64,000 nt of DNA from NCBI RefSeq assembly GCF_003334335.1, contig NZ_QOWQ01000010.1. One strand, given 5' to 3'. Positions 3,001 through 37,055 of this stretch are shown here, piece by piece; positions within the stretch are counted from its first letter, which is position 1, and each line of letters opens with the position of its first letter. The notes below the pieces were generated by a model. The model saw only the letters and a program-made list of their open reading frames with translations, did not search any database and was not told the origin of the DNA. The stretch comes from Escherichia coli (lineage in GTDB: Bacteria; Pseudomonadota; Gammaproteobacteria; Enterobacterales; Enterobacteriaceae). The position numbers and the translations under genes were made by a program.

Positions 3001-3944
3001 ATATCCGGGTTGTTCTGCCAGGCGGGTGGTACTAATAGACGCATGGCGCGGATGATATCCATCCCGCCTGCCAGCAGCAGTTCCAGCATGTTATCCATCG
3101 AACTGGAGTCAGAGCCGGTTTCGTTGACGAACGGTGCGGCGTCGTGCAGGTCAGGGATAAGCGGTGTCTGGAATTTATAAGTACGCGCACGCGCCCATTG
3201 GCGGTTACCGGTGATGGTGTTGATTTCACCGTTATGCGCCAGATAGCGGAACGGTTGCGCCAGCGGCCAGCGCGGTACGGTGTTAGTGGAGAAGCGCTGG
3301 TGGAACAGGCAAATGGCCGATTCCAGACGCAGGTCCGCAAGATCCAGATAAAAGCGCGGCAGATCCGTCGGCATACACAGACCTTTATAGATGTTCACCA
3401 GATTCGACAGGCTACAGACGTAGAAGTCTTTGTCGGCTTCGAGACGCTTTTCAATGCGGCGGCGGGCGATAAACAGACGGCGCTCCATATCGCGTGGACG
3501 CCAGCCTGCCGGGGCGTTCACAAAAATTTGCTCAATGCGTGGCAGAGAGGAGAGGGCGATTTCACCCAGCACGCCTTCGTTAGTGGGGACATCACGCCAG
3601 CCCACAATCGACAAGGTTTCGCGTTGCAGTTCTTCTTCAACGATGCGGCGTGCGGCAGCGGCGAGTTCAGGATCTTTATTCAGGAAGAGCATCCCGACAG
3701 CGTAGTTTTTTGCTAAACGCCAGCCGCGCTCCTGCGCAACGATGCGAAAAAAGCGATCCGGTTTTTGTAACAGCAAGCCGCAACCGTCGCCGGTTTTACC
3801 ATCGGCGAGAATCGCGCCACGGTGCTGCATGCGGGCCAGTGCGTGTATTGCAGTACGCACTACCTTGTGGCTAGGTTCGCCTTCTATGTGGGCGATCAGG
3901 CCGAAACCACAGTTATCCCTCTCAAGGGATTTATCGTACAACAT
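1..3944 (-). CDS. gltB: Glutamate synthase (NADPH) large subunit, N-terminal ~1314 codons; the 3-prime end lies beyond the left edge
   Basis: Minus-strand translation from 3944 gives MLYDKSLERDNCGFGLIAH (propeptide then catalytic Cys) and reaches DYVGKGMAGGLIAIRPP at the window edge. An in-frame upstream ATG at 4037 (MTRKPRRH...) is an alternative start. Absent from the ORF track because its stop is outside the window. Confidence 0.93.
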   Translation of the reverse strand, partial: MLYDKSLERDNCGFGLIAHIEGEPSHKVVRTAIHALARMQHRGAILADGKTGDGCGLLLQKPDRFFRIVAQERGWRLAKNYAVGMLFLNKDPELAAAARRIVEEELQRETLSIVGWRDVPTNEGVLGEIALSSLPRIEQIFVNAPAGWRPRDMERRLFIARRRIEKRLEADKDFYVCSLSNLVNIYKGLCMPTDLPRFYLDLADLRLESAICLFHQRFSTNTVPRWPLAQPFRYLAHNGEINTITGNRQWARARTYKFQTPLIPDLHDAAPFVNETGSDSSSMDNMLELLLAGGMDIIRAMRLLVPPAWQNNPDMDPELRAFFDFNSMHMEPWDGPAGIVMSDGRFAACNLDRNGLRPARYVITKDKLITCASEVGIWDYQPDEVVEKGRVGPGELMVIDTRSGRILHSAETDDDLKSRHPYKEWMEKNVRRLVPFEDLPDEEVGSRELDDDTLASYQKQFNYSAEELDSVIRVLGENGQEAVGSMGDDTPFAVLSSQPRIIYDYFRQQFAQVTNPPIDPLREAHVMSLATSIGREMNVFCEAEGQAHRLSFKSPILLYSDFKQLTTMKEEHYRADTLDITFDVTKTTLEATVKELCDKAEKMVRSGTVLLVLSDRNIAKDRLPVPAPMAVGAIQTRLVDQSLRCDANIIVETASARDPHHFAVLLGFGATAIYPYLAYETLGRLVDTHAIAKDYRTVMLNYRNGINKGLYKIMSKMGISTIASYRCSKLFEAVGLHDDVVGLCFQGAVSRIGGASFEDFQQDLLNLSKRAWLARKPISQGGLLKYVHGGEYHAYNPDVVRTLQQAVQSGEYSDYQEYAKLVNERPATTLRDLLAITPGENAVNIADVEPASELFKRFDTAAMSIGALSPEAHEALAEAMNSIGGNSNSGEGGEDPARYGTNKVSRIKQVASGRFGVTPAYLVNADVIQIKVAQGAKPGEGGQLPGDKVTPYIAKLRYSVPGVTLISPPPHHDIYSIEDLAQLIFDLKQVNPKAMISVKLVSEPGVGTIATGVAKAYADLITIAGYDGGTGASPLSSVKYAGCPWELGLVETQQALVANGLRHKIRLQVDGGLKTGVDIIKAAILGAESFGFGTGPMVALGCKYLRICHLNNCATGVATQDDKLRKNHYHGLPFKVTNYFEFIARETRELMAQLGVTRLVDLIGRTDLLKELDGFTAKQQKLALSKLLETAEPHPGKALYCTENNPPFDNGLLNAQLLQQAKPFVDERQSKTFWFDIRNTDRSVGASLSGYIAQTHGDQGLAADPIKAYFNGTAGQSFGVWNAGGVELYLTGDANDYVGKGMAGGLIAIRPPVG

Positions 3945-4618
3945 ATCGTGAACCTCCCCCAGGCTCTGCGGGAACCCCACTTCCGAACCGCTGCGCACGG
4001 GCACAGAAAGAGCGTGGCGACGGGGTTTGCGTGTCATACGCGCGCCTCGCATTCGCCCCCTTGTTGTCCTTTTCGCATCGGTTAATACGGTGAAGAGGGG
4101 ATCTCAATTACTGCATAAATATGATGAGCAGGCTGCTCATCCAGAAAGCTTCCAGCGGATTTCCAACTTATCGGGAAAGCTGATACAGGTCAAATGGCAA
4201 GCTTATTGGTACAGAAATGTGCTTTAGCGCAAAATTCTTTATTAAATGACTGAAATTAAAATGGATTTTATCTTTAAGGCTAAAAGGGAAGTCGTTAGAG
4301 AAACAGTCAATTCCTGACTGTCATAAAGGTGTGTTAACCCTTATCCTGCCTTGAACTGACGACAAAACCAGCATTTTATACTGCCTTAATTGGTAATGAC
4401 GTTTCATGCTACTGTTTTTGCCTAAAATCCATCAGGAGATAAAAAAATCTGACACAAGATAAGCAAAAGTGATTTATGTGATTATGCATGAAATTTCGGT
4501 AATTTTGATTGATTATGCAGTTGATAAAAGCAGGCCGGGACGATTGATCCAGGTCATCGCCGAATTGAGCTAAAAATGGCAGGCTTTGGCCTCTTTTCAA
4601 GGCGCGGTCTATCAGATT

Positions 4619-5548
4619 ATGCAGTTACAGAAATTAGTCAATATGTTTGGTGGTGATCTCACCCGTCGTTATGGGCAAAAGGTGCATAAGCTGACGCTGC
4701 ACGGCGGTTTTAGCTGCCCTAACCGTGACGGTACCATCGGGCGTGGTGGCTGCACATTCTGTAATGTTGCCTCGTTTGCCGATGAAGCGCAGCAGCATCG
4801 TTCCATTGCCGAGCAACTGGCGCACCAGGCGAATTTAGTTAACCGCGCTAAACGCTATCTGGCCTACTTTCAGGCGTATACCAGCACCTTTGCGGAAGTT
4901 CAGGTGCTGCGTTCTATGTATCAGCAGGCGGTGAGCCAGGCCAATATTGTCGGTTTGTGTGTGGGTACCCGCCCGGACTGCGTGCCGGATGCGGTGCTGG
5001 ATCTGCTTTGCGAATATAAGGACCAGGGTTACGAAGTGTGGCTGGAGCTGGGGCTACAAACCGCCCACGACAAAACACTGCGTCGCATCAACCGCGGCCA
5101 TGATTTTGCCTGTTATCAGCGTACAACCCAGCTGGCACGTCAGCGCGGGCTGAAGGTGTGTTCCCACTTAATTGTCGGCCTGCCTGGCGAAGGGCAGGCT
5201 GAATGTTTGCAAACGCTGGAGCGAGTGGTTGAAACCGGCGTGGACGGCATAAAGCTGCATCCGCTGCATATTGTGAAAGGCAGCATTATGGCGAAAGCCT
5301 GGGAAGCGGGGCGTTTGAACGGTATTGAACTGGAGGATTACACGCTCACTGCCGGAGAAATGATTCGCCATACGCCACCGGAAGTGATCTACCACCGCAT
5401 TTCCGCCAGCGCCCGTCGCCCGACGCTGCTTGCTCCGCTGTGGTGCGAAAATCGATGGACGGGAATGGTCGAGCTGGATCGCTATCTGAATGAACATGGC
5501 GTACAGGGATCGGCGCTGGGACGTCCGTGGCTACCTCCAACGGAGTAG
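4619..5548 (+). CDS. yhcC: Radical SAM family protein YhcC
   Basis: ORF-track 4586..5548; trimmed 11 codons to MQLQKLVNMFGG to give the 309 aa I recall for YhcC; Cys-rich CPNRDGTIGRGGCTFC motif. Confidence 0.88.
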   Translation: MQLQKLVNMFGGDLTRRYGQKVHKLTLHGGFSCPNRDGTIGRGGCTFCNVASFADEAQQHRSIAEQLAHQANLVNRAKRYLAYFQAYTSTFAEVQVLRSMYQQAVSQANIVGLCVGTRPDCVPDAVLDLLCEYKDQGYEVWLELGLQTAHDKTLRRINRGHDFACYQRTTQLARQRGLKVCSHLIVGLPGEGQAECLQTLERVVETGVDGIKLHPLHIVKGSIMAKAWEAGRLNGIELEDYTLTAGEMIRHTPPEVIYHRISASARRPTLLAPLWCENRWTGMVELDRYLNEHGVQGSALGRPWLPPTE

Positions 5549-7980: not shown

Positions 7981-8092
7981 CCCCGGCTAGACCGGGGTGC
8001 GCGAATACTGCGCCAACACCAGGGAAATCTTGGCTGCGCCGTAAATTATTATGATGAGTTACAAGGGCACAGCACTGTTTTTCAGGCCGCAC
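7972..8092 (-). ncRNA. arcZ: Hfq-dependent small RNA ArcZ (RyhA/SraH)
   Basis: Reverse complement reads GTGCGGCCTGAAAAACAGTGCTGTGCCC...CACCCCGGTCTAGCCGGGGTCATTTTTT, matching the ArcZ sequence as I recall it. Terminator hairpin CCCCGG/CCGGGG at 7981-7997; the U-run overlaps the arcB stop codon. Confidence 0.8.
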
Positions 8093-8209
8093 GCAGTTAA
8101 GATAGCAAAACTTAAATGATTTGTTACATGAATCAGTTAAATGTGTGATGCGTACCATTTTTATTAAAAAAATTAATGTGTTTCAGTCAATTGCGAAAGG
8201 ATGATCACA

Positions 8210-8863
8210 ATGAAGAAAATTGGCGTAATTCTGAGCGGATGCGGCGTCTATGACGGTTCTGAAATTCATGAAGCGGTGTTGACGTTGTTAGCTATTTCAC
8301 GCAGCGGTGCGCAGGCGGTCTGCTTTGCACCGGATAAGCAGCAGGTTGATGTTATCAACCATTTAACTGGCGAAGCGATGACGGAAACGCGCAATGTGCT
8401 GATTGAAGCGGCACGAATAACGCGCGGTGAAATCCGTCCTCTGGCCCAGGCCGATGCCGCTGAACTGGATGCGTTGATTGTGCCGGGGGGGTTTGGCGCG
8501 GCGAAGAATTTAAGCAATTTTGCCAGTCTTGGTAGCGAATGCACCGTTGACCGTGAATTAAAGGCGCTGGCACAAGCGATGCATCAGGCCGGAAAACCGC
8601 TTGGTTTTATGTGTATTGCCCCGGCGATGCTGCCGAAAATTTTCGATTTCCCGCTGCGTTTGACCATCGGTACTGATATCGATACCGCAGAAGTGCTGGA
8701 AGAGATGGGCGCGGAGCATGTGCCGTGTCCTGTCGATGATATCGTGGTTGATGAAGACAATAAGATTGTCACCACCCCAGCATATATGCTGGCGCAGAAC
8801 ATTGCAGAAGCGGCGAGCGGCATTGATAAGCTGGTTTCCCGCGTGCTGGTTCTGGCTGAATGA
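8210..8863 (+). CDS. elbB: DJ-1/PfpI-family protein ElbB (YhbL)
   Basis: ORF-track 8201..8863; start moved to [12 protein letters not shown] (217 aa). Confidence 0.9.
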
Positions 8864-9588
8864 GTAAAAGCCGCTTAACGGTGTTTAGTTTCGTTCGCCG
8901 TTTTCTTTTGCGGTTAATGGTTGTCCTCGCCGTTTTCTGGGGCGGGGGCATCGCGTTGTTTAGCGTTGCGCCTGTTCCCTTCTCAGCGGTAATGGTCGAG
9001 CGACAGGTCAGCGCCTGGCTGCATGGCAATTTTCGTTACGTGGCACATTCTGACTGGGTCAGTATGGATCAAATCTCGCCGTGGATGGGACTGGCGGTGA
9101 TTGCCGCAGAAGATCAGAAATTTCCTGAGCACTGGGGCTTTGATGTCGCTTCCATTGAGAAAGCCCTGGCGCACAACGAGCGCAATGAAAACCGTATTCG
9201 CGGTGCTTCAACGATTTCTCAACAGACAGCCAAAAATCTCTTTTTATGGGATGGGCGTAGCTGGGTTCGAAAAGGGCTGGAAGCCGGATTAACGCTGGGG
9301 ATAGAAACGGTCTGGAGCAAAAAGCGTATCCTGACGGTTTACCTGAATATCGCCGAATTTGGCGACGGTGTGTTTGGCGTCGAAGCTGCGGCACAACGTT
9401 ATTTCCACAAACCCGCGAGCAAACTTACCCGGTCGGAAGCTGCATTACTGGCAGCTGTATTACCTAATCCACTTCGTTTCAAAGTCTCCTCGCCATCGGG
9501 CTACGTGCGTAGCCGTCAGGCGTGGATTTTACGGCAGATGTATCAGTTAGGCGGTGAGCCGTTTATGCAACAACACCAGCTGGATTAA
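8860..9588 (+). CDS. mtgA: Monofunctional peptidoglycan glycosyltransferase
   Basis: 242 aa; transglycosylase motifs ([21 protein letters not shown]); ATGA overlap with the elbB stop. Confidence 0.95.
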
Positions 9589-10217
9589 GCTTCGCGCGAA
9601 GTGAGGGCCAGCGTTTTGCTCTCACGAGGTTGCAGATCTTTCTGCAGGGCAATAGCCAGCGCCGGTTGGGCGATAAATCGTTTCCATAACCGCTCTTGCT
9701 TACGCAGACAACACCACTTCGACCAGGTCGCCAGTGGAATCAATGTGCTTTCACCAATGTTGTCGCAGACGACCGGGATAACCTCTGACTCACTGATGCG
9801 GTGACAGAGGATATTCTGCGGCTTCAGCGACATCGTCACGATACGGTTATCCTGCAAATAACGCTTCAGCTGTTTCAGTAGCTGGCGCAGTTGTGCAATG
9901 TCTTCTTCGTAACGGCATTGTTCAGCAAATTCGGTCAGCGTAATGGAAGGCTTGCTGTCAAAATCTGCAATCACATCGTAGACATAACCGGTTCCGCAAT
10001 CCGTCTCAACGGTACCGTGATAGCGCGGTATTCCACTCCAGTCTTTTAACCGGCGACCAAGATGCGCGTAGTACTTTAACTCACGGCGGATCTCTTTATC
10101 GCCACCATCGCCACGATGGTAGACAATCTTGATACAGCGTTGGGCATCTTCCGGATGCGCATAACATTTCCGATGTCTTCCGGTGCCCAGGGGACTTTGT
10201 TCAGATAAGCGAATCAT
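9585..10217 (-). CDS. yrbL: PhoP-regulon protein YrbL (function unknown)
   Basis: ORF-track 9585..10274; start trimmed to [11 protein letters not shown] (210 aa); a PhoP box lies ~50 bp upstream of this start. Confidence 0.85.
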
Positions 10218-33757: not shown

Positions 33758-34606
33758 ATGAAACTCTTTGCCCAGGGTACTTCACTGGACCTTAGCCATC
33801 CTCACGTAATGGGGATCCTCAACGTCACGCCTGATTCCTTTTCGGATGGTGGCACGCATAACTCGCTGATAGATGCGGTGAAACATGCGAATCTGATGAT
33901 CAACGCTGGCGCGACGATCATTGACGTTGGTGGCGAGTCCACGCGCCCAGGGGCGGCGGAAGTTAGCGTTGAAGAAGAGTTGCAACGTGTTATTCCTGTG
34001 GTTGAGGCAATTGCTCAACGCTTCGAAGTCTGGATCTCAGTCGATACATCCAAACCAGAAGTCATCCGTGAGTCAGCGAAAGTTGGCGCTCACATTATTA
34101 ATGATATCCGCTCCCTTTCCGAACCTGGCGCTCTGGAGGCGGCTGCAGAAACCGGTTTACCGGTTTGTCTGATGCATATGCAGGGAAATCCAAAAACCAT
34201 GCAGGAAGCTCCGAAGTATGACGATGTCTTTGCAGAAGTGAATCGCTACTTTATTGAGCAAATAGCACGTTGCGAGCAGGCGGGTATCGCAAAAGAGAAA
34301 TTGTTGCTCGACCCCGGATTCGGTTTCGGTAAAAATCTCTCCCATAACTATTCATTACTGGCGCGCCTGGCTGAATTTCACCATTTCAACCTGCCGCTGT
34401 TGGTGGGTATGTCACGAAAATCGATGATTGGGCAGCTGCTGAACGTGGGGCCGTCCGAGCGCCTGAGCGGTAGTCTGGCCTGTGCGGTCATTGCCGCAAT
34501 GCAAGGCGCGCACATCATTCGTGTTCATGACGTCAAAGAAACCGTAGAAGCGATGCGGGTGGTGGAAGCCACTCTGTCTGCAAAGGAAAACAAACGCTAT
34601 GAGTAA
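33758..34606 (+). CDS. folP: Dihydropteroate synthase
   Basis: ORF-track 33692..34606; start trimmed to [12 protein letters not shown] (282 aa). Confidence 0.93.
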
Positions 34607-35936
34607 TCGTAAATATTTCGGTACCGATGGGATTCGTGGTCGTGTAGGGGATGCGCCGATCACACCTGATTTTGTGCTTAAGCTGGGTTGGGCCGCGGGT
34701 AAAGTGCTGGCGCGCCACGGCTCCCGTAAGATTATTATTGGTAAAGACACGCGTATTTCTGGCTATATGCTGGAGTCAGCACTGGAAGCGGGTCTGGCGG
34801 CAGCGGGCCTTTCCGCACTCTTCACTGGCCCGATGCCAACACCGGCCGTGGCTTATCTGACGCGTACCTTCCGCGCAGAGGCCGGAATTGTGATATCTGC
34901 ATCGCATAACCCGTTCTACGATAATGGCATTAAATTCTTCTCTATCGACGGCACCAAACTGCCGGATGCGGTAGAAGAGGCCATCGAAGCGGAAATGGAA
35001 AAGGAGATCAGCTGCGTTGATTCGGCAGAACTGGGTAAAGCCAGCCGTATCGTTGATGCCGCGGGTCGCTATATCGAGTTTTGCAAAGCCACGTTCCCGA
35101 ACGAACTTAGCCTCAGTGAACTGAAGATTGTGGTGGATTGTGCAAACGGTGCGACTTATCACATCGCGCCGAACGTGCTGCGCGAACTGGGGGCGAACGT
35201 TATCGCTATCGGTTGTGAGCCAAACGGTGTAAACATCAATGCCGAAGTGGGGGCTACCGACGTTCGCGCGCTCCAGGCTCGTGTGCTGGCTGAAAAAGCG
35301 GATCTCGGTATTGCCTTCGACGGCGATGGCGATCGCGTGATTATGGTTGACCATGAAGGCAATAAAGTCGATGGCGATCAGATCATGTATATCATCGCGC
35401 GTGAAGGTCTTCGTCAGGGCCAGCTGCGTGGTGGCGCTGTGGGTACATTGATGAGCAACATGGGGCTTGAACTGGCGCTGAAACAGTTAGGAATTCCATT
35501 TGCGCGCGCGAAAGTGGGTGACCGCTACGTACTGGAAAAAATGCAGGAGAAAGGCTGGCGTATCGGTGCAGAGAATTCCGGTCATGTGATCCTGCTGGAT
35601 AAAACTACTACCGGTGACGGCATCGTTGCTGGCTTGCAGGTGCTGGCGGCGATGGCACGTAACCATATGAGCCTGCACGACCTTTGCAGCGGCATGAAAA
35701 TGTTCCCGCAGATTCTGGTTAACGTACGTTACACCGCAGGTAGCGGCGATCCACTTGAGCATGAGTCAGTTAAAGCCGTGACCGCAGAGGTTGAAGCTGC
35801 GCTGGGCAACCGTGGACGCGTGTTGCTGCGTAAATCCGGCACCGAACCGTTAATTCGCGTGATGGTGGAAGGCGAAGACGAAGCGCAGGTGACTGAATTT
35901 GCACACCGCATCGCCGATGCAGTAAAAGCCGTTTAA
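34599..35936 (+). CDS. glmM: Phosphoglucosamine mutase
   Basis: 445 aa; active-site SASHNP; 8-nt overlap with folP. Confidence 0.97.
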
Positions 35937-36163: not shown

Positions 36164-36496
36164 ATGTATGAAGCTCTTTTAGTAGTTTTCCTTATTGTGG
36201 CAATTGGCCTTGTTGGTCTGATCATGCTGCAGCAAGGTAAAGGCGCTGATATGGGAGCCTCCTTCGGAGCAGGCGCTTCCGCTACGCTGTTTGGTTCAAG
36301 TGGTTCTGGTAACTTCATGACCCGCATGACGGCGCTGCTGGCAACGTTATTCTTCATCATCAGTCTGGTGCTGGGTAACATCAATAGCAACAAAACCAAT
36401 AAAGGTAGCGAATGGGAAAATCTGAGTGCACCGGCGAAAACCGAACAAACTCAGCCAGCTGCTCCGGCTAAGCCGACCAGCGATATCCCGAACTAA
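36164..36496 (+). CDS. secG: Protein translocase subunit SecG
   Basis: ORF-track 36116..36496; start trimmed to MYEALLVVFLIVAIG (110 aa). Confidence 0.93.
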   Translation: MYEALLVVFLIVAIGLVGLIMLQQGKGADMGASFGAGASATLFGSSGSGNFMTRMTALLATLFFIISLVLGNINSNKTNKGSEWENLSAPAKTEQTQPAAPAKPTSDIPN

Positions 36497-36510: not shown

Positions 36511-36597
36511 GCCGAGGTGGTGGAATTGGTAGACACGCTACCTTGAGGTGGTAGTGCCCAATAGGGCTTACGGGTTCAAGTCCCGTCCTCGGTACCA
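36511..36597 (+). tRNA. leuU: tRNA-Leu (anticodon GAG)
   Basis: GCCGAGGTGGTGGAATTGGTAGACACGCTACCTTGAGGTGGTAG...GGTTCAAGTCCCGTCCTCGGTACCA; 87 nt with long variable arm and encoded CCA. Confidence 0.95.
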
Positions 36598-36605
36598 AAT
36601 TCCAG

Positions 36606-36639
36606 AAAAGAGACGCTGAAAAGCGTCTTTTTTCGTTTT
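36606..36639 (+). terminator. Intrinsic terminator after secG-leuU
   Basis: AGACGC-TGAAAA-GCGTCT followed by TTTTTTCGTTTT. Confidence 0.85.
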
Positions 36640-37055
36640 GGTCCTGGTCTGAGGAATGGTTGTCAGGTATCTGTATCTCGTCCAGTTGCTTTACTCGTAG
36701 CTGGTACCTTGAAACGATGGTGCCGGTACGCCTTAGTTATAAATTTTTCCCTTCTACTGACATAATTGGCACTTTATTGTGTCAACTCCAGTTCCGGTAC
36801 GAATACGGATATGTTTACTTCTCGATAAACCATCCTGCTCCTGTCAGTATAACGACTGATGGCTACGTTCTGCGTAATGTTTAGAGACGCATTGATAATG
36901 TTATTTAATTACTGAGAACGCAATGGCCGCATCATTTAAAAAGAAAAAACTAACAGTGTTTCGTTCTGATATGGATCAGAGTTGAAAAACATGTCTGATA
37001 TAAAATTAAACATTGTTGATAATTGTTTATATTGGTTGTGAACTTGGATTTCTGG

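Follow-up and report, generated by a model that had tools for sequence, protein, structure and literature searches.

The DNA between the tRNA gene leuU and the yhbX gene of Escherichia coli is very probably non-coding: it consists of a transcription terminator, 312 bp of filler in which an open reading frame has arisen by chance, and the probable promoter of yhbX, and it belongs to a low-GC cassette that is exchanged as a unit. We examined this spacer in a window of 64,000 nucleotides, the whole stretch of DNA analysed, which is E. coli K-12-like; derivatives of K-12 carry an identical spacer sequence. The range studied comprises the 416 bp that lie 3′ of the leuU terminator (36640-37055). The spacer holds no surprise for a specialist, and our results call for no additional gene, RNA or mobile-element annotation between leuU and yhbX in E. 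coli K-12. What deserves to be kept on record is only the three-state cassette: the interval between leuU and argG is a replacement locus of small size that lies between core genes and has no integrase.

The gene order around the spacer and the positions of all features are given in Table 1. The RefSeq start of yhbX is the ATG at 37056, which makes the spacer exactly 458 bp long, as an earlier reading of the sequence without database searches (the sequence-only reading) had proposed. This exceeds most E. coli co-directional spacers, and the excess is due to a 312-bp orphan segment without assignable role. The same reading had described the spacer as AT-rich, with poly-A/T runs at 36930-36950. 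The A-runs are present (A5 at 36938-36942 and A6 at 36944-36949), and the AT-richness resides mainly in the yhbX-proximal third: the GC content is 44.6% in 36640-36890 and 29.1% in the last 165 bp (36891-37055), whereas the flanks and the window as a whole both have 52%. The spacer resembles an ordinary bacterial intergenic region in having a hairpin and T-run terminator directly after the tRNA gene, AT-rich sigma-70-like elements within ~60 nt of the next start codon, and no annotated feature or repeat family. Unlike such regions, it includes the orphan segment.

Table 1. Features of the leuU-argG locus and its surroundings (positions in the window; a dot marks features without strand)
Feature	Position	Strand	Description
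glmM	34599-35936		first gene listed in the local order
secG	36164-36496		upstream of leuU and co-directional with it
leuU, tRNA-Leu(GAG)	36511-36597	+	ARAGORN; Rfam tRNA, 52.8 bits; RefSeq annotation
leuU-yhbX spacer	36598-37055		458 bp
intrinsic terminator of secG-leuU	36605-36634	+	GC-rich hairpin and T6; terminator scan
K-12-type cassette	36640-38687	.	orphan segment, yhbX upstream region and yhbX; 42.1% GC
orphan segment	36640-36951	.	312 bp, non-coding, specific to the K-12 type; local blastn between haplotypes
ORF74	36660-36884	+	74 codons, TTG start; string confirmed; judged a chance ORF
CCTTGAAA, sigma-32 -35-like	36707-36714	+	sequence match; 36708 polymorphic, C/T
yhbX upstream region (promoter and 5′ UTR)	36952-37055	+	~104 bp, 29% GC; blastn homology
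palindrome TCTGAT-ATGG-ATCAGA	36965-36980	.	contains a GATC site; candidate operator
sigma-70-like candidate, CTGATA, 17 nt, GATAAT	36995-37023	+	-35 and -10 elements (-10 at 37018-37023)
sigma-70-like candidate, TGaTATAAA	36996-37004	+	extended -10
yhbX	37056-38681	+	RefSeq; phosphoethanolamine transferase family, 541 aa
argG	38689-40032	-	only 7 bp from yhbX
metY	40380-40456		beyond argG

The terminator is the last sequence that all genomes have in common. The first 42 nt of the spacer, which contain it, were matched in 5,426 of 5,426 genomes, and the shared sequence stops at 36639. These nucleotides (36598-36639) form the 3′ trailer of leuU, with the intrinsic terminator that ends the secG-leuU transcript. 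The adjoining 36640-37055 is present at 95-100% identity in 5,179 genomes and is undetectable in 247, even by sensitive blastn. The contents of the locus fall into three haplotypes that together account for 5,425 of the 5,426 genomes: the K-type (5,179 genomes), the F-type with an E. fergusonii-type yhbX (9 genomes), and the H-type with a gene for an XRE-type HTH protein (237 genomes). The terminator is kept in all three.

In F-type genomes (for example AST85, locus L002) the spacer measures 273 bp, and YhbX is 69% identical in protein sequence to that of the K-type; E. fergusonii is among the names of the members of the F-type YhbX protein cluster. Local blastn between the K- and F-types revealed 99.6% identity up to 36639, followed by unrelated sequences of 312 and 131 bp, respectively, and then by renewed homology, which starts at 36952, spans yhbX and extends into argG with 71% identity. 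In H-type genomes (for example O91:H21 FWSEC0008, locus L023) both the spacer and yhbX are replaced by a 1.17-kb block that encodes, on the opposite strand, the XRE-type HTH protein of 317 aa. This protein has no NCBIfam family, and its PADLOC matches are weak and at the level of the HTH. The breakpoints are common to the three haplotypes. The left one lies at 36639/36640, just after CGTTTT, and the right one in the last two codons of argG, where the encoded C-termini read ...NKGQ, ...NKAK and ...NKVK; the K-12-type cassette is accordingly delimited by the leuU terminator on one side and these two codons on the other. The GC content of the cassettes is 42% (K), 41% (F) and 37% (H) against 52% in the flanks. 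The exact SecG sequence was found in ten places, all with the K-type architecture. A genome (H93) that keeps only 36964-37055 was considered as a fourth haplotype and proved to be an IS26 rearrangement.

The block from 36640 onwards, yhbX included, passes between Escherichia lineages as one unit. The simplest mechanism would presumably be homologous recombination in the conserved leuU and argG flanks, and not site-specific integration at the tRNA gene. Horizontal-transfer hotspots that lack an integrase are chromosomal loci flanked by core genes. The leuU-argG interval is like them in that identical flanks (secG-leuU and argG) enclose three unrelated or strongly divergent low-GC contents. It is unlike them in its very small size, with one gene per cassette, and in that the genes in two of its three cassettes are not different cargo but divergent alleles (69% amino-acid identity). 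As a compact and cleanly bounded locus with three states, it might be used to trace recombination between lineages of Escherichia.

The gene carried by two of the cassettes shows signs of mobility elsewhere. YhbX produces NCBIfam matches to phosphoethanolamine (PEtN) transferase domains, all of them below the curated cut-offs, and a homologue search recovered only E. coli entries of ~100% identity. One scan of genome contigs with a YhbX alignment found two loci only, neither of them an orthologous region of Escherichia or Salmonella. One, in Leminorella, has an unrelated context with no tRNA gene nearby. The other, in an Enterobacteriaceae MAG (locus L009), encodes a homologue of 65% identity directly beside a P4-type integrase and a tRNA-Phe gene. 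One paper describes YjgX/YhbX-like genes in the pheU, pheV and selC islands. Within E. coli, yhbX is interrupted in several genomes by insertions of IS1, IS1203 or IS26 and in one case by a frameshift. The unrelated contexts of the homologues, the island reports and the interruptions support the view that yhbX is accessory and horizontally mobile, that is, an exchangeable envelope gene and not a core gene.

The position of the cassette beside a tRNA gene raises the question of site-specific integration. The sequence-only reading had pointed to remnants of integrated elements near tRNA genes, and in its full form this explanation would make the spacer the scar of a prophage or genomic island integrated at leuU, with the open reading frame as a decayed gene of the element. 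We regard this as very unlikely, and in its strict form it is refuted by the two outcomes that the sequence-only reading had itself named as refuting it, no homology to mobile elements and no direct repeat derived from the tRNA gene. The suspicion of foreign or variable DNA beside leuU was justified insofar as the low-GC block (36640-38687; 42% against 52%) is replaced in 246 of 5,426 genomes and breaks on the left just past the tRNA terminator, and both the MAG locus and the island reports place YhbX-like genes in the company of tRNA-associated elements. Low GC and replacement beside a tRNA gene are, however, not specific to integrative elements, and tRNA integration as the mechanism found no support. 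The left break falls after the terminator and not within the tRNA gene, and the right break falls in the last codons of argG, with 7 bp between yhbX and argG. A partial repeat of the leuU 3′ end, the mark of integration that the sequence-only reading proposed to look for, does not occur between 36598 and 40100: no leuU-derived repeat was detected there, and the last 12-25 nt of leuU match nowhere in this range with fewer than 4-11 mismatches. Local alignments of leuU with the spacer and yhbX are within chance, as 17-18% of shuffles score as well. One candidate, 36705-36724, matches the anticodon and variable arm of leuU at 15 of 20 positions, and was discarded as a chance similarity because its score is reached by 18% of shuffles.

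Homology searches for an element were likewise negative. Distant-mode blastn of the spacer against 50,697 phage records gave no match. The plasmid collection gave four matches, with 98-99% identity, and all four are E. coli records; three are evidently chromosomes, being 4.8-4.9 Mb in size, and the fourth is a record of 354 kb. The homology to phages or integrative elements that had been suggested as a check on the origin of the spacer thus did not materialise. When a P4-type integrase and neighbouring proteins were compared with the spacer by tblastn, no integrase-, HTH- or YhbX-like translated similarity was found (all E > 0.3), and the spacer contains no open reading frame for a mobility gene. 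The tblastn and PHROG searches with the open reading frame, described below, also yielded no phage match. Compared with the tRNA-associated islands at pheU, pheV, selC and leuX, which have P4-type integrases, the leuU cassette is similar in being adjacent to a tRNA gene, low in GC and variably present, and in that genes of the YhbX family occur as island cargo elsewhere (L009). It differs from them in that an integrase, other mobility genes and att direct repeats are all absent, and in the location of its breaks after the terminator on the left and inside the end of the core gene argG on the right. Since the repeat, the integrase and the homology were all sought and none was found, the spacer does not belong to the class of tRNA-integrated islands.

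The part of the spacer nearest to yhbX can be assigned to that gene. Homology with the E. fergusonii-type allele resumes at 36952 and continues through yhbX, which indicates that the last ~104 bp belong to yhbX. They are ~71% identical to the region preceding the E. fergusonii-type gene, and the alignment score of 42 compares with a mean of 18.3 (sd 5.0, maximum 35) in 500 shuffles. We take 36952-37055 to be the promoter and 5′ UTR of yhbX, judging by matches to consensus and by conservation between these two alleles only. The sequence-only reading had leaned towards yhbX promoter or silencer DNA for the spacer at large; a promoter is supported only for this alignable stretch with its sigma-70-like elements, and not for 36640-36951.

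Several short blocks are retained within the upstream region. The candidate operator palindrome has a core, TGATAT(G/A)GATCA, that is common to both alleles and lies at -87 and -83 from the respective ATGs; position 36977 of the palindrome is polymorphic in 2 of 20 haplotypes. The other blocks are TCT(G/A)AT...TATAAAAT, in which TATAAAAT is identical in the E. fergusonii-type allele, and GATA(A/T)T. The retained blocks coincide with the extended -10-like TGaTATAAA and with the CTGATA/GATAAT promoter. A scan for consensus promoters found 1 site against 1.3 expected, which is not significant in itself. Transcription of yhbX would most likely start from one of these two candidates, TGaTATAAA or the CTGATA/GATAAT pair, with a resulting 5′ UTR of roughly 25-45 nt.

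Silencing of this promoter by H-NS is plausible from its GC content of 29%. DNA of such composition upstream of a low-GC accessory envelope gene is what the region shares with H-NS-silenced xenogeneic promoters. It departs from them in that the high-affinity motif TCGATAAATT is matched in the spacer only once, at 8 of 10 positions (36822), which is the background density. The site table of a paper on GalR lists yhbX; a GalR site could not be placed in the spacer.

The remaining 312 bp, the orphan segment, have no counterpart in either the E. fergusonii-type or the HTH haplotype. The spacer sequence is single-copy, with a median of one place per E. coli genome, and is therefore not a member of an IS, REP or MITE family. 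In an Rfam scan the tRNA alone exceeded the threshold; the matches to STnc50 and isrK, which lie across the tRNA and terminator, reached 17-23 bits where the gathering thresholds are 50-55. The predicted RNA fold of the segment is not significantly stable on either strand (z = -1.72 on the plus and -0.09 on the minus strand), and at the protein level the orphan segment resembles nothing against which it was tested. Most likely, the segment represents decayed filler that was brought in with the yhbX cassette or left beside it.

The open reading frame within the segment, ORF74, is almost certainly a chance ORF and not a gene. The sequence-only reading had noted 74 codons at 36660-36884 on the plus strand and had leaned towards a non-coding interpretation. 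The frame is present, with a TTG start, and the interpretation is borne out by its lack of homologues, of annotation and of a clear coding-specific substitution pattern, and by a length that chance would produce: when the spacer is shuffled, an ORF of 74 codons or more arises in 8% of cases with mononucleotide and in 13% with first-order Markov shuffling. A search with phmmer (HMMER) against 1.84 billion representative proteins found no homologue of ORF74 outside E. coli. It returned only two variants of ORF74 itself from E. coli and two proteins, 1,279 and 5,839 aa long, that matched weakly and in several stretches each. The ORF has no NCBIfam and no PHROG family, no PHROG match had an E value below 0.07, and the best tblastn match to phages had E = 0.6. 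The encoded sequence is rich in Cys, Tyr and Phe and has no recognisable motif.

Annotation of ORF74 is sparse. RefSeq shows no feature under the spacer among the matches listed (5,426 matching genomes), individually inspected PGAP/RefSeq records contain no call, and gene calls on ten independent assemblies skipped it. In public databases the exact sequence appears only under the label 'hypothetical protein', in a small number of annotations that are older or automated, namely in records of HMP 'MS' strains, strain 042, O157 SS17 and Shigella sonnei. The frame is open back into the tRNA gene, which explains the versions of 105-114 aa produced by gene callers on contig fragments. In our view ORF74 should remain uncalled.

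It is extremely unlikely that ORF74 is instead a real 74-aa protein restricted to E. coli and expressed either by a weak promoter belonging to it or by read-through from leuU past the terminator. One observation in this direction concerns the ribosome-binding site: the sequence-only reading had seen no Shine-Dalgarno, but an SD-like GAGG (36651-36654) precedes the TTG by 5 nt, which is a correct spacing. The start is, however, located ~20 nt past a strong terminator. Of 20 distinct haplotypes, 19 keep the frame open; one haplotype has a 1-bp deletion that shifts the frame, in which an assembly error is suspected since yhbX of the same genome is also annotated as frameshifted, and the longer deletion, of 6 bp in another haplotype, is in frame. 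None of the 13 substitutions among the 20 haplotypes affects a second codon position. This small number of substitutions gives a pN/pS of 0.47 in frame, compared with 0.42 and 0.33 in the two non-ORF frames. As these stop-filled frames have comparable values, no frame-specific signal is apparent. The whole ORF is missing from the F- and H-type haplotypes. Furthermore, the Bernhardt laboratory interrupted ORF74 between 36745 and 36746 with a cat cassette that served as an ftsH-linked marker in MG1655 derivatives; strains with the interrupted ORF are usable, and the part of the source that describes the marker mentions no phenotype. Together with the lack of homologues and inspected PGAP/RefSeq calls, the chance length and the unremarkable composition described above, these results argue against a protein-coding role and for the chance ORF.

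The orphan segment could alternatively function at the RNA level, as a long regulatory 5′ leader of yhbX that starts from a sigma-32 promoter near 36707-36740 and acts by attenuation or RNA structure. An in vitro genomic SELEX with RNAP-sigma32 found a peak in the leuU-yhbX spacer (Shimada 2017, PMC5493296), at 3.2-fold against a cut-off of 3.0. The -35-like motif CCTTGAAA at 36707-36714 may explain this weak peak, going by its sequence. By an approximate conversion from U00096.2 coordinates, the peak would fall near window position 36740. The plus-strand fold is also slightly more stable than that of shuffles (z = -1.7). We nevertheless consider such a leader very unlikely. The peak barely passes the cut-off, no good -10 and no convincing CCCCATnT follows CCTTGAAA, and the motif is polymorphic at 36708; because of the polymorphism and the missing -10 we regard the binding as incidental. 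Neither does the fold z-score reach significance, nor is there a match to an Rfam family. Moreover, in the E. fergusonii-type allele the proximal 104 bp are retained although the entire segment is absent.

Within E. coli, the orphan segment is about as conserved as yhbX, with 13 variable sites in 225 bp, compared with 26 in the initial 300 bp of the gene. At such high identity, neutral evolution and a recent common ancestry would be enough to account for this conservation, and the segment may also be under constraint. That it is active, either through ORF74 as a young small protein made by read-through or as a stress-promoter leader tuning yhbX, is highly improbable; if it were, a conservation at least equal to that of yhbX would reflect selection and not recent common descent.

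The interval between leuU and argG in E. coli holds one of three alternative contents, which share their breakpoints and are all low in GC (37-42%). The right breakpoint of this exchangeable block lies within the 3' end of argG (window 38688-38697), and the final two residues of argG, together with its stop context, vary by haplotype.

Alternative contents of the leuU-argG interval and the argG C-terminus of each example
Content	Coordinates	Genomes	argG C-terminus
K-12-type spacer and yhbX	window 36640-38687	5,179	...NKGQ (window)
E. fergusonii-type spacer and yhbX, 69% amino-acid identity	L002 (AST85 locus) 8043-9912	9	...NKAK (AST85)
Unrelated 317-aa XRE-HTH gene, opposite strand	L023 (FWSEC0008 locus) 3543-4711	237	...NKVK (FWSEC0008)

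In E. coli O91:H21 FWSEC0008, yhbX is replaced by a gene at L023 3575-4528 whose product carries the XRE-HTH domain at its N-terminus. No NCBIfam family was found for this protein, and its matches to the PADLOC candidate-system models are weak and at the level of the HTH only (PDC-M64C, E = 2e-4).

Some annotations start yhbX at TTG 37023, giving a protein of 552 aa, as opposed to the 541 aa that follow from ATG 37056 (window 37023-37058). Because the E. fergusonii-type protein aligns with the ATG-started form from residue 1, the comparison of the two sequences favours the start at 37056. Several complete E. coli genomes carry yhbX frameshifted or broken by IS26, IS1 or IS1203 (L022, H154, H184 and L026), as would be expected if the gene were accessory and dispensable.

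At its other end, yhbX is separated from the convergent argG by only 7 bp, and its 3' end contains a CCCTG...CAGGG inverted repeat (window 38655-38691). In each of the other two haplotypes, the gap between the genes holds a separate hairpin. The pair argG-yhbX appears in the ExcludonFinder list of overlapping convergent transcription units (PMC12288877).

A YhbX homologue of 65% identity was found in an Enterobacteriaceae MAG (contig CALYPF010000120.1; L009 2908-6213), where its immediate neighbours are a P4-type integrase (420 aa; NCBIfam PRK09692, E = 4e-74) and a gene for tRNA-Phe. Judged from this adjacency, the YhbX-family gene of that genome is cargo of a tRNA-Phe island. YjgX/YhbX-like genes are also reported from pheU, pheV and selC islands (PMC6174562).

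Within the spacer of the window, 20 nt at 36705-36724 match the anticodon and variable-arm region of leuU (36539-36558) at 75% (TACCTTGA...GGTGCC); we rejected this similarity as a meaningful match, as it is statistically within chance. The leuU 3' trailer has a 3-bp indel polymorphism (AAG) immediately 5' of the terminator stem (window 36598-36610), carried by several phylogroup-B2-like haplotypes (LS4, R12, AH21H052 and others).
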